Source of the DNA: Escherichia phage ZCEC10
Sequence record: NC_073075
Strand: one strand, 5' to 3'
DNA: 44,776 nt
The notes beneath the pieces are model-generated. The model was given only the letters and a program-made list of their open reading frames with translations. It did not search any database and had not been told where the DNA came from. Made by a program: the position numbers and the translations under genes. Below are positions 5,348-44,776 of the stretch, one piece after another (positions within the stretch are counted from its first letter, which is position 1; the number at the start of each line of letters is the position of its first letter).

Positions 5348-5638
5348 ATGGATAAGCTAAACGAGTGGTTATTCGCCCTTGCGTGTCTTGCTGGTGGCTT
5401 CGTGGGCGCACGCATTCACGGCGAGGCAACGAAAGGGCCGTTGAACTTCGTTTTATATGTCGTAGTTGGCTTCCTGTGTGCCATATTTGGTGCGCCAGCT
5501 ATTGCCGAGTGGTCTGGTTTGTCTGGCGAGCGCACTGTCGCCGGTTTGGGCTTCGTAACTGCCATCTTCTGGATGCCAATCGCCGACCGGATCCGGGAGA
5601 CAATTGCGACGCTACACCTTCCGGGGGGCGCAAAATGA
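5348..5638 (+). CDS. Holin-like membrane protein
   Basis: 96 aa with two or three hydrophobic segments, immediately upstream of endolysin. Confidence 0.55.
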   Translation: MDKLNEWLFALACLAGGFVGARIHGEATKGPLNFVLYVVVGFLCAIFGAPAIAEWSGLSGERTVAGLGFVTAIFWMPIADRIRETIATLHLPGGAK

Positions 5639-5880
5639 TTATCTCCGTCCTGTTGTTTGTTATCATAGGGGCTTCGTCCCTGTTTAACGTGTATGCGCCG
5701 TCCGTTCAGGATGGCTTCTTCGGTCGGGTGTTATATCTGCTAACAGCAATGACCTGTATTGTCGGGCTGTTGCAAACGGGAGACGTATCTGATGCCACCT
5801 GGACCGCGTTAATCTGGCTGTTTGCATTGCGCACGCTGCGCAATGCTGTTTTAAATGGGGTAAAACATGCGATTCAGTGA
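5635..5880 (+). CDS. Second small membrane protein (holin or antiholin candidate)
   Basis: 81 aa, two hydrophobic segments; ATGA overlap upstream and overlap with endolysin start. Confidence 0.5.
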   Translation: MIISVLLFVIIGASSLFNVYAPSVQDGFFGRVLYLLTAMTCIVGLLQTGDVSDATWTALIWLFALRTLRNAVLNGVKHAIQ

Positions 5881-6358
5881 CAACGGTCTAAGATTTACGG
5901 CAGCATGGGAGGCTTTCAGCCCAGTGCCGTATTTCGCGACTAAGAAAGAGCAGGCCCGCGGCCTGTATACCTGGGGCTATGGTCACACCGGCACTAATCC
6001 GCCACGAAGCATTACCCGTGCGGAAGCACTGGAGCTACTCAAGCGCGATGTGGCATATGCCGAGAACTGGGTGAACAAGTACGCACACCCGAGCATCAAT
6101 CAGGCGCAATTCGACGCGCTGGTGGACCTGGTAATCAATGCCGGTCCTGGTCCGATCATGCCGGACGACGTAGCCGGTGATTTCGACGATGCGATCCGCC
6201 TGGGCGACTGGGCAAAGGTGCGGGCTATACTGCCACAATTCCGCAAGCAAGGTGGGGAAGTGCTGAAGGGGTTAGTCCGTCGAGCAATCGGCAGGCAGGC
6301 GCTATTCGATGGTAAGCAGTGGGACGTTGCCGAGAAGATCGGACGTAACGCAGCATAA
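5867..6358 (+). CDS. Endolysin, GH24 lysozyme family
   Basis: 163 aa with lysozyme-like motifs (YTWGYGHT...NAGPG). Confidence 0.8.
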   Translation: MRFSDNGLRFTAAWEAFSPVPYFATKKEQARGLYTWGYGHTGTNPPRSITRAEALELLKRDVAYAENWVNKYAHPSINQAQFDALVDLVINAGPGPIMPDDVAGDFDDAIRLGDWAKVRAILPQFRKQGGEVLKGLVRRAIGRQALFDGKQWDVAEKIGRNAA

Positions 6359-6374
6359 TACGGGGTAACACAGT

Positions 6375-6782
6375 ATGTTAAAAAGTATTCTTGATCATAA
6401 CGCCGACGCGCTCGCCGCGCTGGCTAAAACCGAAGACCCAGGCGCACGCGCTATTGTAGCGGATACGATCAGCCATGCGGGGGTGTTTGGCGCAAGCCTT
6501 CCGGGTCCGAAACCAGAGGTGAAAGTGACAAGCGCCACGGTAACGGTAGCTCCCGAGGCGGTTACAATCGGCACCCCGGCGAAGGCTACTGCGGCGGTAC
6601 AACCGGCAGGGGCGACCAATAAATCCGGCGTGTGGGTCAGCGGGTCGCCGACCATTGCCACCGTGGATGCTTCTGGCAATATCACGGGTAAAGCACCTGG
6701 ATCTGTCGATATTATTTGGGTGGCTAAGGATGGAAGCGGGGTGTCGGGCCGCAAAACGGTAACTGTGGCAAACGCAGAGTAA
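6375..6782 (+). CDS. Bacterial Ig-like (Big_2-type) domain protein
   Basis: 135 aa; C-terminal TVTVAPEAVTIG...ATAAVQP...TIATVDASGNITGKAPGSVDIIWVAKDGSGVSGRKTVTV matches the Big_2 beta-sandwich pattern. Confidence 0.55.
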   Translation: MLKSILDHNADALAALAKTEDPGARAIVADTISHAGVFGASLPGPKPEVKVTSATVTVAPEAVTIGTPAKATAAVQPAGATNKSGVWVSGSPTIATVDASGNITGKAPGSVDIIWVAKDGSGVSGRKTVTVANAE

Positions 6783-6787
6783 TGAGC

Positions 6788-6815
6788 AAGCCCGCCGTAT
6801 TGGCGGGCTTTTTAT
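6788..6815 (+). terminator. Rho-independent terminator
   Basis: Stem agcccgcc/ggcgggct with loop gtatt, followed by TTTTTATT. Confidence 0.75.
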
Positions 6816-6900
6816 TGTTCGACCTGCGACCAATTAATATCCCATACTGCGGTCGCCGTGATATATTGACCGCGGACAATCTGAATCAGGAAGATATGCA

Positions 6901-8043
6901 ATGCACCCGCAAACTAAAATCACCGACGAGCAATTGATCGCCGAGTTGCAATCCGGCACTACCGCGAAAGAGATTGCGAAGAAGTACGGCCTTTCCCTCC
7001 GAAATGTCTACATGCGAAAAGCCCGCCTTTCGAAGAAAGGGATTGGTCACGGCAACGATGCCGTAATCCGTAAGCGCGTTGCCGATGGCTTCGGCGTTAA
7101 GCGCGTATCCGCCCTGGTGCGCGGCAATGGCGAGGAGGTCATGTCCTGGGTCATCACCGAGCAGGACAAGGAGCGCCAACTCGAGGCAATGCGCGCCGTT
7201 GTCGAAGGGATGAACAGCGAAATCACACCGGCAGCGCCAGTAAACGCCCCGCCAGTACCGATCCAGGCGCTCGACTTACTCAACCTGTACACCGTGTCAG
7301 ACTTCCACCTGGGCATGTTGGCCTGGGGCGAGGAGACTGGCGAAGACTGGGATATGGCGATTGCCGAAGACCTGTTCTACCGCTGGTTTGTCGAAGCCTT
7401 CGCACGCGCACCAGATGCAGGCACTGCCGTAATTAATATCCTCGGTGATATGGCGCACTTTGATAGCCTTGATGCCGTCACACCTGCCAGCGGTCACATA
7501 CTGGACGCTGACACCCGCTACCAGAAACTGGTCCGATACATGATTCGCATGGTGCGCAACGTAGTCGAACTGGCGCTGCAAAAACACCACAAAGTCAAAC
7601 TGCTAATCGTCCAGGGGAATCATGACGAGTCGGGTATGATTTGGCTGGCTGAGATGTTCAATACTCTGTACGAGAACGAGCCGCGCGTCGATGTGGATAC
7701 GTCCCCTGACGTCTACAAAATGGTGCAGCACGGCAAGACCACGCTATTCTTCCACCACGGGCACAAAGCGCGATTCGATGCGATCGAGCAGGTTATGATT
7801 TCTAAATTCAGACAGGCTTTCGGGTCCAGTGAGTACAGCTACGCGCACGTAGGCCACTTGCACCACCAGAAGATTGTAGAATCCCGCAACATGATTGTTG
7901 AACAGCACCGAACACTCGCCGCGAAAGACGCATATGCCAGCCGTGGTGGTTGGATGTCCGGTCGCAGCGCAAACGTCATCACCTACAGCGCCAACTACGG
8001 CGAAGTAGCGCGCTTAACCATTAGCCCGGAAATGTTGAAGTAA
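6901..8043 (+). CDS. HTH domain fused to a calcineurin-like metallophosphoesterase
   Basis: 380 aa; N-terminal HTH (TAKEIAKKYGLSLRNVYMRKARL); metallophosphatase motifs DFHLG, GDMAHFD, QGNHDE, HHGHK, GHLHHQ. Confidence 0.7.
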   Translation: MHPQTKITDEQLIAELQSGTTAKEIAKKYGLSLRNVYMRKARLSKKGIGHGNDAVIRKRVADGFGVKRVSALVRGNGEEVMSWVITEQDKERQLEAMRAVVEGMNSEITPAAPVNAPPVPIQALDLLNLYTVSDFHLGMLAWGEETGEDWDMAIAEDLFYRWFVEAFARAPDAGTAVINILGDMAHFDSLDAVTPASGHILDADTRYQKLVRYMIRMVRNVVELALQKHHKVKLLIVQGNHDESGMIWLAEMFNTLYENEPRVDVDTSPDVYKMVQHGKTTLFFHHGHKARFDAIEQVMISKFRQAFGSSEYSYAHVGHLHHQKIVESRNMIVEQHRTLAAKDAYASRGGWMSGRSANVITYSANYGEVARLTISPEMLK

Positions 8044-13163: not shown

Positions 13164-13177
13164 TGGCCCCCTTTTGT
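13153..13177. terminator. Bidirectional rho-independent terminator between convergent genes
   Basis: Stem ggggcc/ggcccc with loop gtaat, AT-rich on both flanks. Confidence 0.7.
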
Positions 13178-13941
13178 TAGCGCGGAATACCGCAGATTTC
13201 GTTTAACGTCTTCACGTCCAGCGCCACCGCCGTGGACTTCAGCTTATCCGGGTATGGAATAAACTGTTCAACTTCAGGCCATGCTTTGATCAGCTTCTTA
13301 TCGGTATTGTGCATATCCAGCACGCCGGTAACAGTAAGTTTGAACGCGTCATACTTAGCTCGCAAATCGCGGCGGGCCTTGTCGTTACGGTCTAGTCGCT
13401 TGCAGAAATCGTGGTCCGCTGGGTAGTCTACACGACCGCGCGGAAGATATATCGGCAGCGCTTTCCCGTCCTCGTCGACTTCGCACACTGACGCGAGCAT
13501 AACTGTCTCGAACCCCGGAACGATATCGCCGAGATCAGGAGCGAGCTTATCCATATATTTCTCTTCCCAGTACCCGCGACGTACTCGGAATCGGTGTCCG
13601 TCTCCGCTCAATGACAGTGTGCGCACATTTCCGCCTGCGTTGATTTCGAAAGTGGCGTCGTAAACGCTGCCGATGCCTTTTGGGCGGTCGGCGTTATAAC
13701 TATACGTCGCCTTGTTGGTGTATACGCATACTCCGTACATCTGCGACGGGTCATCGCCGATTGCTTCAATGCGCGCGAGTAGCTCGGCGAATGTGCGAAT
13801 GCCTTCCGGCATACAGTCCAGCGTAATGTCATACGCCAGGTCGCGTGAGTCCATCATTATTGATTTGGCTTCGGTCGCGATTTCGTGGTCGCGCAGGATG
13901 TTAGCCAGAATCTGGTTTTTAATGTCTTTCGTCAGTCTCAT
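13177..13941 (-). CDS. Hypothetical protein (254 aa), antisense island within the head module
   Basis: Long clean ORF on the minus strand; no recognisable motifs. Confidence 0.7.
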   Translation of the reverse strand: MRLTKDIKNQILANILRDHEIATEAKSIMMDSRDLAYDITLDCMPEGIRTFAELLARIEAIGDDPSQMYGVCVYTNKATYSYNADRPKGIGSVYDATFEINAGGNVRTLSLSGDGHRFRVRRGYWEEKYMDKLAPDLGDIVPGFETVMLASVCEVDEDGKALPIYLPRGRVDYPADHDFCKRLDRNDKARRDLRAKYDAFKLTVTGVLDMHNTDKKLIKAWPEVEQFIPYPDKLKSTAVALDVKTLNEICGIPR

Positions 13942-13980
13942 TTGTGTGTCCTCGTGGTGGGGGCTTTCGCCCCGTTTGGT

Positions 13981-14295
13981 TTAGTTAAACTTGATGTTGC
14001 CGCCGGTGGAAGTTAAGCGAGCGCATACAGCTTCAACGGCATCGACGCACATGAAATCGTTAAAGGCTTCTACCAGGGCTTTGATGAAAGATGCCGGAAC
14101 CAGACCGCAAGCCGGATTGTCGAAGGTTGCAGAATTGATTGCGGCCTTCGCGGCTTCAGTAGCGTTCATGCTCTGGCACAGATTCAACGCTTCGGCGTTA
14201 CGCATTGCGTGAAAGGTAAAGGTATTGGCTACGGTAGCTTTATTGAAACGGGTCATTGCTACGTCTACTGGAGTTGCTACGGTCATGTTAGTCAT
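13981..14295 (-). CDS. Hypothetical protein (104 aa), first gene of the antisense island
   Basis: ATG at 14295 with AAGGAAAA RBS; the longer track ORF extending to 14748 is an N-terminal shadow over the scaffold gene. Confidence 0.55.
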   Translation of the reverse strand: MTNMTVATPVDVAMTRFNKATVANTFTFHAMRNAEALNLCQSMNATEAAKAAINSATFDNPACGLVPASFIKALVEAFNDFMCVDAVEAVCARLTSTGGNIKFN

Positions 14296-14330: not shown

Positions 14331-14359
14331 AATATATGCAACCAATACGAGGATTGCAA
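14331..14359 (-). promoter_or_regulatory. Sigma70-like promoter for the antisense island (TTGCAA-17-TATATT, minus strand)
   Basis: Minus-strand -35 TTGCAA (14354..14359), 17-nt spacer containing ATTGGTTGCA, -10 TATATT (14331..14336). Confidence 0.5.
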
Positions 14360-25126: not shown

Positions 25127-25734
25127 CCACATTTAAATTATACGGCGTTTTAGGACGTCGATTCGGTAAAGTGCATAAGCTGGACTGCTTCACTCCGGGC
25201 GAGGGTATCACCGGCCTGTGCGTGAAGTTACCCGGCTTACAGGACTTTCTAATGTCGGCACACCTGGACAATATGATGTTCAAGGTGCGCAAAGGCGACC
25301 ACACGATGACCAGCTATGATGAGCTGGGAGAGTTCCACGGCAACCGCGTCGTTACCATCGCGCCAGTTATGACTGGCGCAAAAAGGGGATTGGGACAATT
25401 GCTGGCTGGTGTCGCGATTGTGGTGGCGTCGTTCTATACGGGCGGACTTGCTACTGCCGCTTTCGGGGCTTCGGCGGCAACCGCTGCCGCAATCGGGACG
25501 GCGACGTTTTCGTTCGGCATGTCGCTTGCGCTGGGCGGTGCTATGCAATTGCTGTCCCCACAGCCAAAAGGATTGCAGACCCGGCAGGACGTGGATAACA
25601 AAGCGTCGTACGCGTTCGGCGGGCCAGTGAATACAACCGCGCAAGGCACGGCACTTGGTGTATTATGGGGCGAGCGTGAGATCGGCGGCGCTATTATTTC
25701 AGCCGGAATCGTAACCGAGGACTTAAACGAATGA
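25117..25734 (+). CDS. Tail assembly protein (lambda I-like)
   Basis: 205 aa, N-terminal ubiquitin-like segment and Gly/Ala-rich hydrophobic C-terminus. Confidence 0.7.
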   Translation: MAMTTFKLYGVLGRRFGKVHKLDCFTPGEGITGLCVKLPGLQDFLMSAHLDNMMFKVRKGDHTMTSYDELGEFHGNRVVTIAPVMTGAKRGLGQLLAGVAIVVASFYTGGLATAAFGASAATAAAIGTATFSFGMSLALGGAMQLLSPQPKGLQTRQDVDNKASYAFGGPVNTTAQGTALGVLWGEREIGGAIISAGIVTEDLNE

Positions 25735-28700
25735 CGATTATCTACGACGTCACTGGGCATAAAGGCGGCGGCGGCAAACAGCACACCCCACAGGAGACGC
25801 CCGATAGCCTGCATTCGCTGGCTAAAATCCGCATCTTGCTCGCACTGGGCGAAGGGGAATTCGAAAGTATTACCAGCGCCAGCGAATTACGGCAGCGAGT
25901 ATATCTGGACGGCACGCCGATCCAGAACGCCGATCTGTCGGAAAACTTCCCCGGCGCGCGCGTGGAGTTCCGCCCCGGCACACAACACCAGGACGTGATC
26001 CACGGATTTTCAGCGGTGGAAAGTGAGCAATCCGTAGGCGTAAAACTGGAAAACGGCACGCCGTGGGTGCGCCAGATTAATGACACCAGTCTTGACGCCG
26101 TGCGCATTCGAATCGGCATTCCCGCCCTGTACACAAACGAAGATAATGGCGACCTGGTGGGCGGGCGCATCGACTATAAGATCGTTGTGTATACGGATAA
26201 CGCAGACCCGCGTGAGTTCAGATTCGCCGCCGTTGGTAAAACAATGTCGCTATATGAGCGCGACCACCGCATCGAATTACCGCCGAACGTGAATACCGGC
26301 TGGCGGGTGGAGGTGCACCGCATAACGGCAGACTCCACATCGGCGAAAGTGGTTAATGATATCCGGGTGCAATCCATCACTGAGATTATCGACGCCCGCC
26401 TGCGATACCCGCTAACCGCGCTGTTGTTCGTGGAGTTCGACGCCAAAGCGTTCCAGAACATCCCGCGCGTGTCCATCAAGTGCAAAGGGCGTAAAGTGCT
26501 GGTGCCGAACAACTATGACCCGATTAATCATACCTATTCGGGAAACTGGGATGGCACGTTTAAACGCGCATGGACGGATAACCCCGCGTGGCACTGGTAC
26601 GATATTTGTATTACTGAGCGCTTCGGCCTCGGTCGGCGTATCAAACCGCAAATGTTAAACCGGTACGCGCTCTACCAGATTGCGCAGCGCTGCGATCAGT
26701 TGGTCAGCGACGGCAACGGTGGTCGAGAAATCCGCTTTAAGAATGATATGTACATTCAGTCACAGACGGATGCCTGGACCGTGCTTAAGGATTTAGCCGC
26801 TATCTTTGCTGGTATGACCTGGTGGGGAAATCAGATGTTGAATATCGTCAGCGACCAGCCGGTCGCAGCGGTATCGCACACCATCACCAACGCCTCGGTC
26901 ATTGATGGTCGATTCGACTACGCGTCCGGTAGCCAGAAAACTCGGTATTCCACGTTCGCGGTAGCCTACGGCAACCCAAAGAACCACTATGAAGATGCTA
27001 TCGCAACGGGACAACGTGTTGAACTGGTACGCCGCCATAAGATTAACCGTCTTGATATCACGGCGATCGGCTGTACGCGTGAATCAGAAGCGCAACGCCG
27101 CGGTCACTGGGCTCTAATCTCCAACCAGCTTGACCAGCAAGTTAGCTTTAAGGTTGGCATGGAGGGACTTTTCTTTATTCCTGGTAGCGTAGTCGCGATC
27201 GCCGATACAAACATTTCTGGCGGCTTCGAGACACGCGGCGGTCGCCTGTTGACAGATCCTGGCACGCGGACGGTGCTGAACACAGACAGCGAAATCACGT
27301 TCCGCCCCGGTGATAAATTCCTGGTACGCACCGATAGCGGTAATGTGGAGACTCGCGAGATCGCCAGCGTCAACGGCAACAAGGTAACGCTAAAAACCGC
27401 ACTGGACGCAGACCCGATTCCTGATCAGCCGTTTTGCGTTGATGGCAACGATATCCAGTTGCAGAAGTTCCGCATCACCGACCTGGAATATGACGACTCT
27501 ACCAGCACTTTTTCAGTGCGCGGGATCGAGTACAACGATAGCAAATATGATGCCGTTGATAATGGCGCTCGCCTTGATCCGGGCATCTTCACGCAAGTGC
27601 CTGACGGCGTAATGAAGGGGCCGGAGTCCGTGACCATCACCCCGTCGCAGATTTCATCGCAAGGCCAGCTAATCACCAACGTTGATATTGTATTCCCGCC
27701 GGTGAAGGATGCCGTGGTGTATGAAATCCAGTGGCGACGTACCAGCTTGCAGAATATGGAAATCCAGTGGGGTAACGACTGGGTAAACATCCCACGTACG
27801 GCATCGAACGGCGCGCACATCCCTAACGTGTTCTCCGGTAACTACCAGGCACGCGTCCGCGCAATCGGTATGGGCGAGATTTCGTCCCCGTGGGTGTCGT
27901 CCGCTATCACGCCGATCGAAGGTCGTCTCGGCGGGCTTAACGCGCCTATCATCACCAACGCGATTTCGGGCCTCCACCAGATTTTGTGGAAGTGGAACCA
28001 TAACAACGCCGCGACGGATATCTCCTACACCGAGCTTGAAGTGCGCAAGACTGGTGAGACGGAATGGAATTTCTTAACCAACGTCCCATATCCTGGGTCG
28101 GAGTATGCGCAAACGTCGCTGGAGTTCGGCATTTACCAGCAGTTGCGCGCCCGCGTAGCTGATAAAATCGGCAACCTGTCGGACTGGTCCGCCCTGTTTG
28201 AAGGCCAGGTGAGTGACAAAGTTGACGAGTACATGAAGGGGCTTGATGACGAGTTCTTGACTTCCGAGGACGGTAAACGCTTCCAGGAAGCGATCGACAC
28301 CATGCCGCAAGGTATCTATGAGTCTATGCTTACGGACGCCCAGCAGCTATTCAATGCCCGCGCCGAGTATAAAGGGATTTATGCGGAAATCACGGTGGCG
28401 TATAACGTGGCGGCGGACGCGCATAAAGCCGTAGCGCAACTGGAAACGTTGATCGGCACGCGCCTTGATGACGCCGAAGCATCAATCCACACGTTGCAGA
28501 CTGCGCAAAGCACACATGAACAAGCGTTCGCCCAGTACCAGCAAACTGTTGCCGCTAAGTTTTCGGAACAGGAAGCAGCCATCCAGCAGGTACAAACGGC
28601 AACGGCGGACGTGGCTGGCGCGCTAGCGGAGTACAAAACCCAGGTCGCGGCACAGTTCGATCAGCAGTCCGCCGCTATTGAGCAGAAGATGACGTCATCG

Positions 28701-29150
28701 TTTAACCATGCTGGCGGTAGCGCTACATATAGCCTTAAAGCTGGCGTGACGTATAACGGGACTTACTATGATGCCGGTATGCAGCTTTCCGTCGTGGCGG
28801 AAGGTGGCGCGGTTAAATCCCGCATCGCGTTCAAGGCGGACCAGTTCTACATCATGCACCCATCTAACGGGTCGCTTTCGTCCGCGTTTATCGTGGACGG
28901 CGGCGCGGTGTATATTGACACGGCACGCATCAAGGACGCGACTATCAACTTCGCGCAGATCACGGACACGCTGCAATCGAATAACTATGACGGCTACTCG
29001 CGTGGCTGGCGCTTAGGGAAAGACGGAACGTTTATCAACCTGGGAACCGGTAACGGTGGTGGGATGAAGCAGACAAACACGCAAATCAGCGTCAGGGATG
29101 GAAACGGCGTGCTCCGCGTGCAGATTGGTGAAATCACAGGTTATTGGTAA
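25731..29150 (+). CDS. Tail tip / host specificity protein (lambda J-like central fibre)
   Basis: 1139 aa, largest ORF, follows the I-like gene with overlapping start. Confidence 0.85.
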   Translation: MTIIYDVTGHKGGGGKQHTPQETPDSLHSLAKIRILLALGEGEFESITSASELRQRVYLDGTPIQNADLSENFPGARVEFRPGTQHQDVIHGFSAVESEQSVGVKLENGTPWVRQINDTSLDAVRIRIGIPALYTNEDNGDLVGGRIDYKIVVYTDNADPREFRFAAVGKTMSLYERDHRIELPPNVNTGWRVEVHRITADSTSAKVVNDIRVQSITEIIDARLRYPLTALLFVEFDAKAFQNIPRVSIKCKGRKVLVPNNYDPINHTYSGNWDGTFKRAWTDNPAWHWYDICITERFGLGRRIKPQMLNRYALYQIAQRCDQLVSDGNGGREIRFKNDMYIQSQTDAWTVLKDLAAIFAGMTWWGNQMLNIVSDQPVAAVSHTITNASVIDGRFDYASGSQKTRYSTFAVAYGNPKNHYEDAIATGQRVELVRRHKINRLDITAIGCTRESEAQRRGHWALISNQLDQQVSFKVGMEGLFFIPGSVVAIADTNISGGFETRGGRLLTDPGTRTVLNTDSEITFRPGDKFLVRTDSGNVETREIASVNGNKVTLKTALDADPIPDQPFCVDGNDIQLQKFRITDLEYDDSTSTFSVRGIEYNDSKYDAVDNGARLDPGIFTQVPDGVMKGPESVTITPSQISSQGQLITNVDIVFPPVKDAVVYEIQWRRTSLQNMEIQWGNDWVNIPRTASNGAHIPNVFSGNYQARVRAIGMGEISSPWVSSAITPIEGRLGGLNAPIITNAISGLHQILWKWNHNNAATDISYTELEVRKTGETEWNFLTNVPYPGSEYAQTSLEFGIYQQLRARVADKIGNLSDWSALFEGQVSDKVDEYMKGLDDEFLTSEDGKRFQEAIDTMPQGIYESMLTDAQQLFNARAEYKGIYAEITVAYNVAADAHKAVAQLETLIGTRLDDAEASIHTLQTAQSTHEQAFAQYQQTVAAKFSEQEAAIQQVQTATADVAGALAEYKTQVAAQFDQQSAAIEQKMTSSFNHAGGSATYSLKAGVTYNGTYYDAGMQLSVVAEGGAVKSRIAFKADQFYIMHPSNGSLSSAFIVDGGAVYIDTARIKDATINFAQITDTLQSNNYDGYSRGWRLGKDGTFINLGTGNGGGMKQTNTQISVRDGNGVLRVQIGEITGYW

Positions 29151-29153
29151 CAC

Positions 29154-29175
29154 AGGGGCTTCGGCCCCTTTCTTA
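29154..29175 (+). terminator. Putative terminator after the J-like gene
   Basis: Stem aggggc/gcccct with loop ttcg, weak T-tract. Confidence 0.5.
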
Positions 29176-29187
29176 GGGAGGTATTGC

Positions 29188-29490
29188 ATGGCTTTCGGCG
29201 TAGCAACATGGGACGCGCAAGGGCGACCAAACAACTACGGGATCAAGCCCGTTTCGGTTGTCGGAATTATTAAACTGACTCAAGGTCAAACATGGGGGGC
29301 GTGGTCGTTCGATATTCCGTCCGGTATGAAAGTAGGTTTTGCGGTTACGCTGGACGTAGGCGGCACTACGGTCGGTCGGGCGATCCGCGCCAGCGGGAAC
29401 ACGATAACAGTATCTGCGGCAAACAGCGCCGGTATTGGAAACTACCCGGCATCAGAATGTGAGGTAGTAGTTTTTGTGGAGAAAGCGTAA
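29188..29490 (+). CDS. Hypothetical tail-associated protein
   Basis: 100 aa with GGGAGG RBS. Confidence 0.5.
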   Translation: MAFGVATWDAQGRPNNYGIKPVSVVGIIKLTQGQTWGAWSFDIPSGMKVGFAVTLDVGGTTVGRAIRASGNTITVSAANSAGIGNYPASECEVVVFVEKA

Positions 29491-29492
29491 AA

Positions 29493-30164
29493 ATGGCAAA
29501 CTTCGGCGCGTTAATCGATAACAACAACGGCAACCCATTCATTACGCCAAACTCAACGCCGTTCGTCCTCTACGCTAAAGTGTCGGCAAATTCAGTGGAC
29601 GCCGGTGCAGATTATAAAACAGCAAGCGGTGGAGTGGATATCCCCGCGAACTATCCGGCGATGGTGTTCATGCGGTCCAATAACCGTTGCGTCCTGGCGG
29701 CGTCACGATCAGGTAACCGGATCATATTTAGCGGAAGCATTCAGGGTCAGAATAACCCACATTTTACCGTCACGGCGTACATATTCGCGCGATTCCCGCA
29801 ACCGCTGCCGAGATGGGGGTTTGCTATTTGGGACGCCAGCGGGACGTGCATACTCACCAACGAGAGCAAGGTACTCACTGATTTAGTCACAGTTGGCAGC
29901 TTCGGCAATAATGGGGGGATCAACATAGACCAGACGCTGCCGGGTAAATACGCGGTATCCCCTATGTTAATGGGCGCTACTCTGATCCAGATCTTTGTAC
30001 AAGGGCAGCCGCAGATTATCCAGATCTCGGCGGGGGCCGGTGCTTACGACAACGGAAGCGGCACTCGTATTAACGCGGTCGCTACGCAGGCGGGGTCGGG
30101 GAGCATCGCTGGGTATCAAAACACCGGCGTTGCGCTGACCGCAATTAACGTTGATGGGATATGA
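29493..30164 (+). CDS. Hypothetical tail-associated protein
   Basis: 223 aa clean ORF. Confidence 0.55.
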   Translation: MANFGALIDNNNGNPFITPNSTPFVLYAKVSANSVDAGADYKTASGGVDIPANYPAMVFMRSNNRCVLAASRSGNRIIFSGSIQGQNNPHFTVTAYIFARFPQPLPRWGFAIWDASGTCILTNESKVLTDLVTVGSFGNNGGINIDQTLPGKYAVSPMLMGATLIQIFVQGQPQIIQISAGAGAYDNGSGTRINAVATQAGSGSIAGYQNTGVALTAINVDGI

Positions 30165-30190
30165 AAAAGCCCCGTTCGGGGCTTATTTGC
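30164..30190. terminator. Bidirectional terminator between convergent genes
   Basis: A-run, stem gcccc/ggggc with loop gttc, then T-rich tract. Confidence 0.65.
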
Positions 30191-30401
30191 AGGTTGTTCT
30201 TTTGAAGTTGTCGATAGACACATACTGGAAGTTGAATGGGTATCCCGCCCGTAACATTTTATGACCGCTAACGTCTGCAACCCCAAACACAGGGACGGAA
30301 TACTCCATACCACTATTCATGTATGTTGCGTCGCAGATTTTAGACGGCATGTCGGCACAACCGGACAAAAGAACCGCACAAATCATAATTAAAGTTTTCA
30401 T
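30183..30401 (-). CDS. Small lipoprotein, candidate Cor/Llp-like superinfection exclusion protein
   Basis: 72 aa from the ATG at 30401 (AGGAG RBS); signal peptide with lipobox LLSGC; antisense gene beside the receptor-binding genes. Confidence 0.55.
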   Translation of the reverse strand: MKTLIMICAVLLSGCADMPSKICDATYMNSGMEYSVPVFGVADVSGHKMLRAGYPFNFQYVSIDNFKRTTCK

Positions 30402-30482
30402 GGTATCATCTCCTATATTTGGTTGAGTTTTAGTATTGCACCTCTCAATCAAGAATGCAACCAATTTTATGAGGATTCAGCT

Positions 30483-32315
30483 ATGGCAGCGGGTACACTC
30501 TCCGTAACGAATAACAGCAAGGCGGTTGTCGGGGCAGGCACGACGTTTACCGCGTTTACCGCTGGCGACTTCTTAACTCTGGTGGTGGGGCAAGTCCCCT
30601 ACACCGTGGCGATCTCTTCCGTCGAGAGCGACACCGCGCTTACTTTGGTGCTGCCGTTCGATGGACCAACGGCAACCGGCCTTGCGTGGGATGGGGTTAA
30701 GCGCGATACCATGTCACTGGCAACGATGGGCGTTACCGTACAGGCACAGAAAGCATTGCGCTTGATGATTGCGGATGAAAACAACTGGCGTGCAATCTTC
30801 GGCGACGCTGAAGAAATCACAGTGACGTTACCTAACGGGCAGGTTATGCAGGGTATGTCATGGGGCTACCTGTCATCCTTGATGAAGGAAGTAGACCCCG
30901 TCGAGATGCGCAACCTGCAACAACAAGCCGCCGCATCGGAAGCCGCCGCGCAAGGATTTCGTAATGAGGCCGAAGGCTTCAAGACTGAGACGGCTGGGAT
31001 TCGCGACGCCACCAACCAGATTAAGGCGGATACGCAGGCGGTCCACGACGCCACTAATACCATCAAGACGCAAACCGATCAGATTAAATCTGATACGCAG
31101 GCCATAAAAGACCAGACCAACCAGATTAAGACGGATACCGGCGTTATTCGCGACGAAGCTAATACAGCGAAGACCGACGCGCAAGCCGCCCGCGATGCCG
31201 CGCGAGGGTTTCGCGATCAGGCGGAAGAATGGGCGCAAAGCGTAAACCCCGACAATCTGCTAACCAAATCCGGCAACCTCGCCGGGCTTGCGGACAAAAG
31301 TGCGTCGTGGGCTAACCTTATGCCGTCAGGACCGCTTCGCGTAGGCGCGGACCCCATTGAGGATCTGGATGCCGCGACTAAGCGCTGGACTCTGGCGCTT
31401 TTAGACGCAGGCACGGCGAATACGTCGTGGAGTGTTAAGAACGCAGATGGTAGCGCACCTCCACTCGGCACTGTCGTCCGTGGCGGCGAGGTGGTATCGG
31501 AATATTCCAACCCAACAGCTACGCAGTTCGCCCGTCTGTACTCAAGCTCGGTATTTGGTTCTTCTGTCGGGGCTGTTGTTGAGTCTCAGGGGGCAGACGT
31601 ACACCAATTCAGGTTCTATGAGAACGGTAACATGGACTTCCGAAAGTCCGGTCATGGAAACGCTTTGGGGATGTATTCTGCCCAGGTCGCCTGGGATTCG
31701 ATACTCCGTGCGGGGCCGTCCGACTTGGTTACGGGCGGGGTTGATCGTGTGTCGGAAGGTGCTGGCTCGGATATCGTACTACTTGGTTATTCACTCGGTG
31801 CGGCTGGTCCAACAGGGTATCCGACTAAAGTAGGCTTCCACCAATACATGCCAGGAAGTCCAGCATTCGGTTCGGCGGTCATTACTGTTGGTGGTGATAA
31901 CAACTTCTGGTCGCGGTACTTCTTCGATATCACCGGGCAGATTTACGGGGCTACAAACAACGGCGAGTTCAGCTACGCGCGTAATGGCGTATCTGATGAG
32001 CGGGTTAAGCATGATATCGCCCCTGTAGGTGTTGAAAAGTCGTATTCTAATATTCGGGGTCTGGAGTTTGTAAAGTTCGTCTACAATAACGACGAGCAGG
32101 AGCGCGTCCGGCATGGTGTAATTGCGCAGCAGGCGGAGACTGTGGAACCTCTATACGTTAAGACTCGTAAGTACGTGGGTATTAATCCGGGAGAGGTTGT
32201 GGAGCAGAAGGAACTGGACACCACGCCGATGTTGCTGGATACTATGCACGTTGTGCAGACGTTGATGCAGAAGATCGAGGCTATGGAGGCCGAGATCGCG
32301 GCGCTGAAGAAATAA
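30483..32315 (+). CDS. Tail fibre protein with C-terminal intramolecular chaperone (peptidase S74-like) domain
   Basis: 610 aa; tandem IKxDTQAxxDxTN repeat segment; C-terminal SDERVKHDI...VVQTLMQKIEAMEAEIAALKK resembles auto-cleaving chaperone domains. Confidence 0.75.
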   Translation: MAAGTLSVTNNSKAVVGAGTTFTAFTAGDFLTLVVGQVPYTVAISSVESDTALTLVLPFDGPTATGLAWDGVKRDTMSLATMGVTVQAQKALRLMIADENNWRAIFGDAEEITVTLPNGQVMQGMSWGYLSSLMKEVDPVEMRNLQQQAAASEAAAQGFRNEAEGFKTETAGIRDATNQIKADTQAVHDATNTIKTQTDQIKSDTQAIKDQTNQIKTDTGVIRDEANTAKTDAQAARDAARGFRDQAEEWAQSVNPDNLLTKSGNLAGLADKSASWANLMPSGPLRVGADPIEDLDAATKRWTLALLDAGTANTSWSVKNADGSAPPLGTVVRGGEVVSEYSNPTATQFARLYSSSVFGSSVGAVVESQGADVHQFRFYENGNMDFRKSGHGNALGMYSAQVAWDSILRAGPSDLVTGGVDRVSEGAGSDIVLLGYSLGAAGPTGYPTKVGFHQYMPGSPAFGSAVITVGGDNNFWSRYFFDITGQIYGATNNGEFSYARNGVSDERVKHDIAPVGVEKSYSNIRGLEFVKFVYNNDEQERVRHGVIAQQAETVEPLYVKTRKYVGINPGEVVEQKELDTTPMLLDTMHVVQTLMQKIEAMEAEIAALKK

Positions 32316-32322
32316 ACAGAAT

Positions 32323-32346
32323 GGGGCCATACGGCCCCTTTTTTTA
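32323..32346. terminator. Bidirectional terminator at the switch between the plus and minus gene blocks
   Basis: Stem ggggcc/ggcccc with loop atac, followed by T8. Confidence 0.7.
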
Positions 32347-32919
32347 GTTTGAGTTTTCCCAATCCATCTTGCGCCTCACTAGCGGGCTTTCGTAGTATTC
32401 CTTGCCCTCTACTTCCACCAAAGGCCAGTCGTTCACAATCACGTAAGGCTCTGCGATATCCTCGATCACGCCGTGCGCGCTATGTTGTCCGAACGATACG
32501 CCCACCAGGATAACACCGGCAACGCGACGGGTCAGATATTCGCGAGCGCAACGGGCCTCCACCAGTCCGCGACGGATGCCGCTGGTGGCCTTAACCTCGT
32601 AGGTCCATACAGCATCGATCACATGCTCGCGGAAGTCTGGGCCGGACTTTACCTTGCGCTTGCCGACCATGATGATATCGCCGCGGTCGATGGTGTTAGC
32701 GCTGAACAGACCGGTACGCATTAGTAAGCCTTGCGGTATGCAACTACGCCCGCCCGCCTGCCCCTCAAGGTACATACCTGCAAACATCTCGCCCAGAACA
32801 CCGACAAGACGGCTTTGTTTGCACGCGTCAGACTTTAGGCGCCACTGGTCAAACTCGATGCTTGCGATCATTGCCGCCAGGTGGAATTGTTTACCGGATA
32901 TTTCATATTCGCCGTGCAT
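32344..32919 (-). CDS. Putative PD-(D/E)xK-type nuclease
   Basis: 191 aa; GDIIMV ... WTYEVKATSG fits a D...(E)xK active-site arrangement (motif level only). Confidence 0.45.
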   Translation of the reverse strand: MHGEYEISGKQFHLAAMIASIEFDQWRLKSDACKQSRLVGVLGEMFAGMYLEGQAGGRSCIPQGLLMRTGLFSANTIDRGDIIMVGKRKVKSGPDFREHVIDAVWTYEVKATSGIRRGLVEARCAREYLTRRVAGVILVGVSFGQHSAHGVIEDIAEPYVIVNDWPLVEVEGKEYYESPLVRRKMDWENSN

Positions 32920-44699: not shown

Positions 44700-44776
44700 G
44701 CGTCCTGCATCCTGTCGACGGGGGGAATAATAGATTGGTTGCAGGATGGGTGTCAACAACTAATTTCAAAAAAAAA
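44700..44776. repeat. Terminal direct repeat, right copy
   Basis: Exact match to 1..77. Confidence 0.85.
44727..44756 (-). promoter_or_regulatory. Sigma70-like early leftward promoter (TTGACA-18-TATTAT, minus strand) inside the terminal repeat
   Basis: Minus-strand -35 TTGACA at 44751..44756, -10 TATTAT at 44727..44732, spacer containing TGCAACCAAT; identical copy at 28..58. Confidence 0.45.

Follow-up and report, generated by a model that had tools for sequence, protein, structure and literature searches.

A putative FhuA-blocking cor lipoprotein gene, antisense to the tail operon, in a Dhillonvirus genome

A small open reading frame lies on the minus strand among the plus-strand tail genes of this phage, and the questions it raises are what kind of protein it encodes, which receptor that protein might act on, and how it could be expressed against the late tail operon. 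Our reading is that the gene is very probably the cor gene of a FhuA-dependent Dhillonvirus, and that its product would cause exclusion by way of FhuA. The window, by which we mean the whole 44,776 bp stretch of DNA that was analysed, is a rotated version of the ZCEC11 record (OK310512.1, 44,776 bp, Dhillonvirus) from which it differs at two positions, 31563 and 31728, and ZCEC12 is identical to it over the region compared. An exact 77 bp duplication is present at its termini (1–77 is identical to 44700–44776), and the GenBank record also carries one, in another rotation. This duplication has the look of a k-mer overlap that the assembler left on a circular or permuted sequence, and the unique genome would then be 44,699 bp long.

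The gene and the signals immediately around it are as follows.

30183..30401, minus strand: cor coding sequence, 72 amino acids plus stop (from translation, PHROG 1119, NCBIfam NF047972 and dN/dS)
30357..30401, minus strand: predicted lipoprotein signal peptide MKTLIMICAVLLSG and lipidated Cys15 (from reading of the sequence; Cys15 does not vary among 21 diverse members of the family)
30410..30414, minus strand: ribosome-binding site AGGAG, 8 nt 5' of the cor ATG (its GG core is the same in all 12 of the Dhillonvirus loci aligned)
30167..30184, minus strand: intrinsic terminator hairpin common to cor and the convergent gp23-like gene (T1 is annotated likewise)

The reading frame extends from an ATG at 30401–30399 to a TAA at 30185–30183, and its product is MKTLIMICAVLLSGCADMPSKICDATYMNSGMEYSVPVFGVADVSGHKMLRAGYPFNFQYVSIDNFKRTTCK. 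An earlier note on this DNA had described a 72-amino-acid lipoprotein with an LLSGC lipobox, and the translation of 30183–30401 and the position of Cys15 bear that description out: the N-terminus has Lys2, a hydrophobic core and the lipobox L-S-G-C that ends in this cysteine. The residues that follow MKTLIMICAVLLSG are C-A-D, so the +2 residue is Ala and there is no Lol-avoidance Asp at that position (the lipoprotein signal and the +2 rule were assessed by eye). By the established Lol-sorting rules an Asp at +2 causes retention of lipoproteins in the inner membrane, and because the residue here is Ala, Cor is likely delivered to the outer membrane. Transcription of the gene has an evident end point in the stem-loop and T-run at 30184–30167, which follow the cor stop and overlap the stop codon; on the cor strand the T-run is a good one.

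The gene is already labelled "super-infection exclusion protein" in GenBank, where it is given as 93 amino acids from a TTG at 30464, with the region 30402–30464 as the extra part, and the neighbouring tail fibre gene is started at a TTG at 30423, so that the two coding sequences overlap head to head. All of the homologues begin at the MK of the 72-amino-acid form, which leaves the TTG start of cor unsupported, and the tail fibre orthologue in one related genome (L009) begins with MAAGTLSV, corresponding to the ATG at 30483. Since the N-termini of the homologues match the shorter forms, the two GenBank starts are probably wrong, and ATG 30401 for cor and ATG 30483 for the tail fibre are favoured. 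Comparison of seven Dhillonvirus orthologues gave a dN/dS for cor of 0.03–0.15 at a dS of 0.5–1.3; purifying selection on this frame is therefore strong. With this low ratio and with significant matches to family models (below), cor is, on the sequence evidence, no chance ORF.

The family to which the protein belongs is clear. It matches PHROG 1119 (Cor superinfection exclusion protein) with E = 3e-27, residues 1–72 aligning with positions 1–75 of the 78 in the profile, and it scores 64.9 bits over residues 2–71 against the NCBIfam equivalog NF047972 (phage exclusion lipoprotein Cor), whose cutoff is 31. Pfam has no family for Cor, and the lone match there, Herpes_gp350_C with E = 0.18, is spurious. 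A tblastn search with the protein found matches in 241 phage records, most of them labelled Cor or superinfection exclusion. Its identity is 51% with T1 Cor and 40–44% with Cor of N15, phi80 and HK022, and Cys15, Cys23, Cys71 and the sequence RAGYPF are invariant among all of these and the Dhillonvirus Cor proteins. A word-indexed homologue search returned only six proteins, and an HMM was therefore run against the full set of 1.84 billion cluster representatives; it found 38 clusters (50% identity) at E ≤ 1e-3, nearly all of them of 55–110 amino acids, so this is a small family. Across 21 diverse cluster representatives (50% identity; 71–86 amino acids) no residue is invariant other than Met1 and the three cysteines, a pattern that fits one lipidated cysteine and one structural disulfide, and mature Cor probably contains a Cys23–Cys71 disulfide. 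The protein thus combines a length in the 70–80 amino acid class, a lipobox cysteine without Asp at +2, two further cysteines and an (R/K)AGYPF core, and its gene directly follows gp22-like and gp23-like genes 3' of J, as it does in FhuA-dependent phages. The AlphaFold2 model, built from a shallow alignment of seven sequences, is a small beta-barrel with a mean pLDDT of 81 and values above 90 over residues 21–70. A Foldseek search of the PDB with this model gave no significant match, the T5 protein Llp being seventh (E = 0.16) among generic small beta-barrels; the predicted fold nonetheless resembles the small disulfide-stapled beta-barrel of Llp, if the disulfide is taken to form.

The genes on either side of cor are listed here.

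25731..29150, plus strand: J-like central tail fibre (PHROG 31), of which the last ~45–55 codons are part of a swappable cassette
29188..29490, plus strand: gp22-like "outer membrane protein", 100 amino acids (PHROG 557, E = 2e-31), the first gene of the cassette and in the position of N15 gene 22
29493..30164, plus strand: gp23-like "membrane associated protein", 223 amino acids (PHROG 425, E = 8e-67), a candidate FhuA-binding receptor protein
30483..32315, plus strand: lateral tail fibre (PHROG 1980), divergent from cor

The earlier note had cor antisense and between the J-like and tail fibre genes, which is so, but it is not directly beside J, since the genes at 29188–29490 and 29493–30164 intervene. 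The first of these is started at 29098 in GenBank, inside J, and the ATG at 29188 gives the 100-amino-acid form found in N15. Homologues of the gp23-like protein are present in T1, phi80, N15, HK022, ES18 and JLBYU60, the last of which is a FhuA-dependent Dhillonvirus (PMC10373560), and J, gp22-like, gp23-like and cor follow one another in the same order in N15, phi80, HK022 and T1. A gp23-type protein has been proposed to be the receptor-binding protein (PMC8594841, PMC12309495), and the role of gp22 and gp23 is disputed, with those two papers on the side of receptor binding and PMC13164509 on that of accessory exclusion proteins. The suggestion in the same note that the lipoprotein is a Cor/Llp-type candidate for superinfection exclusion is supported by NF047972, by PHROG 1119, by this J/gp22/gp23/cor cassette and by the GenBank label.

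A role in lysis, as the outer membrane subunit of a spanin, was also considered, since the product is a small predicted outer membrane lipoprotein with conserved cysteines and the lysis cassette of this genome (holin 5348–5638, endolysin 5867–6358) yielded no recognisable spanin. We regard an o-spanin identity for the gene as extremely unlikely, and reject it by argument from context and homology, the true spanin being unrecognised in that cassette. The gene is about 24 kb from the holin and endolysin genes (5348–6358) and has no overlapping or adjacent inner membrane spanin partner, its neighbours being the gp23-like gene and the tail fibre gene; its product matches the Cor models over its full length, and its mature domain co-varies with the receptor-binding module and not with the lysis genes. 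In addition, the predicted structure is a compact Llp-like beta-barrel and not the extended, proline-rich form of a spanin. We note that the gene next to the endolysin, at 6375–6782, is annotated as "major tail protein" and matches Ig-domain structural proteins.

The case that the cor product acts on FhuA is made by phages whose receptors are known. The gp23-like protein is 94.6% identical to that of PaulFeyerabend, and KarlBarth Cor is 90.3% identical to the protein encoded here; the BASEL data give FhuA as the terminal receptor of both phages, and LptD as the receptor of TheodorHerzl (whose closest relative is SO-1) and of Oekolampad. The cor cassette, together with the two genes upstream of it, occurs in the Drexlerviridae and Dhillonvirus phages of BASEL, all of them FhuA users (PMC13164509). 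Because near-identical alleles of the cassette are found in BASEL phages for which FhuA has been measured, FhuA is the likely target, and the list of receptors that had been put forward earlier for this lipoprotein (FhuA, BtuB, LptD and OmpC) appears to narrow to this one. A protein of the Cor fold could in principle be aimed at a different outer membrane protein, for example BtuB or another TonB-dependent transporter, as Cor/Llp-like lipoproteins do accompany BtuB-dependent phages in other groups (PMC13164509, PMC9586334). This is unlikely here, however: the adjoining gp22/gp23 module is an allele found only with FhuA-dependent phages, the near-identical alleles are those of phages with FhuA as the measured terminal receptor, and the match is to the Cor equivalog model itself. 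FhuA therefore remains the target that we prefer.

Five other Dhillonvirus genomes (L008–L012, of the SO-1/slur05/EK99P-1 type) match Cor over its first 16 residues only. From the BASEL assignment of LptD to TheodorHerzl, the relative of SO-1, these appear to be LptD-type phages. Their lipoproteins are 73 amino acids long; the promoter region, the ribosome-binding site and the signal peptide up to and including LLSGCA do not differ from those of cor, but the 57-residue mature parts are unrelated to that of Cor, and in all five the homology ends right after codon 16 of the lipoprotein gene, at LLSGCA. At the DNA level the homology to these genomes ends at window position 30353 and returns at 28986–29026 in the end of J (the last ~50 codons), which makes 28987–30352 (~1.35 kb) the exchanged segment, with its counterpart in the five at about 6049–7408. 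The mature domain of the lipoprotein has thus been exchanged along with the receptor genes and the end of J. In the LptD-type genomes a gene for a receptor-binding protein of ~321 amino acids begins 5 nt after the lipoprotein gene on the same strand, and the two form an antisense operon; in the window, cor has no homology to the mature domain of the LptD-targeting lipoproteins and is not followed by a co-oriented receptor-binding protein gene.

A mature exclusion domain that is swapped along with the J tip and the receptor genes is what is expected of a receptor-matched exclusion protein. The block that carries the promoter, ribosome-binding site and signal peptide (30354–30465) may be the fixed recombination arm of a receptor-switching cassette in the Dhillonviruses, a proposal that we hold to be evenly balanced between right and wrong. 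The exclusion domain, the receptor-binding genes and the J tip change as a single unit in these comparisons, while the expression and export signals stay constant; if the proposal is right then, taken with the occurrence of ATTGGTTGCA across the genus, cor would lie in a defined class of phage promoter that also serves the receptor-binding protein gene of the other type of cassette. Elsewhere in this region, the part of the tail fibre gene that encodes the C-terminal half (31300–32270) is a second recombination hot spot, where the homology to every Dhillonvirus compared ends at ~31000–31380 and returns at ~32200–32370; this is consistent with the O-antigen-specific tail fibre tips proposed in PMC8594841.

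The putative promoter of cor and the occurrences in the window of the motif that it carries are given below.

30432..30465, minus strand: candidate sigma-70-type promoter, ATTGGTTGCA with the -35 hexamer TTGCAT, a 17-nt spacer and TG-n-AATACT (motif and hexamers invariant in 12 loci)
35, 2851, 2886, 3177, 3259, 3290, 4007, 6834 and 14333: ATTGGTTGCA sites with at most one mismatch
14346, 30465, 33579, 33582, 35253, 35270, 38215, 38227 and 44734: further ATTGGTTGCA sites with at most one mismatch

The earlier note offered the string TTGCAT-17-TGcAATACT as a possible promoter and drew attention to a motif upstream of the gene. Both are where they were said to be, the string at 30460–30432 (TTGCAT at 30460–30455, the 17-nt spacer, and TG-C-AATACT at 30440–30432), with a single occurrence in the whole window, and ATTGGTTGCA at 30465–30456. 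By consensus the candidate is weak, with three of six positions in the -35, four of six in the -10 and in addition the extended -10 TG, and it was not called in a generic sigma-70 promoter scan, whose calls in and around cor resemble noise (4 found, 2.3 expected). In the alignment of 12 loci, ATTGGTTGCA, the hexamers, the TG, AATACT and the core of the ribosome-binding site are all invariant, and most of the substitutions in the -35/-10 region fall in the spacer. Furthermore, the shared 82 bp intergenic region must hold a working promoter, because the LptD-type relatives express their receptor-binding protein gene from there. The promoter reading is thus plausible, its function being suggested by this conservation and by the need of those relatives for transcription. 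A sigma-54 reading of TTGGTTGCA was also considered and rejected, as the spacing from GG to GC misfits the -24/-12 consensus.

The weak match to consensus bears on whether cor has any role in the lytic cycle at all. Cor first became known from temperate phages, where it serves lysogenic conversion, and ZCEC11 has no lysogeny genes (PMC8954371), so the gene could be imagined to be a moron left over from temperate ancestors that is silent or barely expressed. We think this very unlikely, given that cor is under strong purifying selection despite synonymous divergence that is saturating, that the promoter hexamers, ribosome-binding site and signal peptide do not vary in the 12 loci, that the virulent phage T1 retains the same antisense arrangement, and that the essential receptor-binding protein gene of the LptD-type relatives must use the same promoter region. 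None of the three alternatives, a different receptor, a lysis protein or a silent remnant, is favoured over a functional cor gene directed at FhuA.

The motif ATTGGTTGCA is not confined to cor. Allowing one mismatch there are 18 sites in the window, a count that includes one site twice (35 is the same as 44734) owing to the 77 bp terminal duplication, where 3.1 are expected; this is an excess of about sixfold, and none of 100 shuffled sequences had as many. The sites are intergenic, lie 5' of gene starts and are often in tandem pairs, and at four of them (3259, 35270, 38227 and 30465) the arrangement is TTGCAN, 17 nt, and then TATATT, TATAGT or AATACT. The motif is kept at orthologous sites in 11 other Dhillonvirus loci, it was not found in the T1, N15, phi80 and HK022 loci, and a literature search for it gave only unrelated primer sequences. 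It is probably an extended -35 element of sigma-70-type promoters in the Dhillonviruses, or else a regulator site that overlaps that element, and if it is read as a promoter element then cor would belong to that class of promoter. We note that the window contains a second antisense unit, 13177–14283 on the minus strand, a pair of genes set into the plus-strand structural module where the head morphogenesis genes give way to the major head protein gene. It has a strong-looking promoter (TTGCAA, 17 nt, TATATT) that is overlapped by the tandem ATTGGTTGCA pair at 14346 and 14333.

These observations suggest the following course of events in the infected cell. The cor gene would be transcribed alone, probably early and antisense to the late tail operon, from its small sigma-70-type promoter bearing ATTGGTTGCA, and transcription would stop at the hairpin that it has in common with the convergent gp23-like gene. 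The 72-amino-acid precursor would be exported, lipidated at Cys15 and cut by signal peptidase II, and the mature protein, 57 residues long, would form a small beta-barrel that is probably stapled by the Cys23–Cys71 disulfide. Mature Cor would then bind FhuA from the periplasmic side, in the manner described for T5 Llp (PMC9586334), and so make FhuA unusable as a phage receptor. As a result, a second phage of the same receptor class should be able neither to adsorb nor to inject, and new virions should not be lost on envelope debris. It has been reported that Cor functionally inactivates FhuA (10.64898/2026.03.26.714494), exclusion of FhuA phages and loss of FhuA transport on expression are known from the literature for the Cor proteins of mEp167, phi80, N15 and HK022, and in an AF3 model a T1-like Cor docks with FhuA from the periplasm (PMC13164509).

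For the annotation of the genome this analysis confirms and refines what is on record: the gene is cor, FhuA is its probable target, and the ATGs at 30401 and 30483 are the better starts for cor and the tail fibre gene. ZCEC11 was isolated against APEC O18, and if it is used in therapy Cor would make infected cells refractory to other FhuA-dependent phages; the design of phage cocktails should weigh such exclusion, and hosts can be expected to become resistant by losing fhuA. The boundary of the cassette and the promoter motif could also aid receptor-swap engineering in small siphophages; they extend the published work on allelic receptor-binding loci and overturn none of it. The gene itself comes from a published genome, already carries an annotation and falls into a well-known family, and its setting has been described before in Dhillonvirus; the ZCEC11 paper (PMC8954371) does not discuss it. 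Two observations go somewhat beyond the literature that we found: the cassette breaks exactly where the signal peptide ends, and ATTGGTTGCA recurs throughout the genus as a probable promoter motif.

Among known systems the closest in arrangement is that of the Tunavirus T1, whose Cor (AAP49969.1) has the 51% identity given above, the same length class, the lipobox, the cysteine pair and RAGYPF. T1 has the same cassette (J, ORF32, ORF31, cor), with cor antisense and a terminator common to it and the convergent gene, and both phages are virulent siphophages, so the antisense orientation of cor is not new. T1 belongs to another genus or family, however, has a recombination gene and not a lateral tail fibre gene beyond cor, and is without ATTGGTTGCA at this locus. 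The Cor proteins of N15 (gene 24), phi80 and HK022 have the same invariant residues and their genes the same J/gp22/gp23/cor order; all three phages are FhuA-dependent (PMC13164509), and Cor-mediated exclusion was defined in them. They differ from the present case in that their cor runs in the direction of the tail genes and works from the prophage, in lysogenic conversion, whereas here it is antisense in a genome that has no lysogeny genes. T5 Llp, known from the FhuA–Llp complex (PDB 8A60, chain B), was the sole match of Cor to PDB sequences, and this phmmer match is not significant (E = 0.39, residues 3–40 only). The partner receptor-binding protein of Llp in T5 is pb5, whereas the neighbours of cor are of the gp22/gp23 type (PHROG 557 and 425) and no pb5 gene adjoins it, and at the level of sequence Llp is a family separate from Cor. 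The lipoprotein of the Rtp45/Oekolampad type (PDB 9RPS), finally, occupies the same slot in sister Dhillonviruses, with no change in the promoter, the ribosome-binding site or the signal peptide up to and including LLSGCA, and follows the same logic of an exclusion lipoprotein matched to the receptor (PMC12685063), but it has an unrelated mature domain, is encoded in a same-strand operon with the receptor-binding protein gene, and targets LptD.
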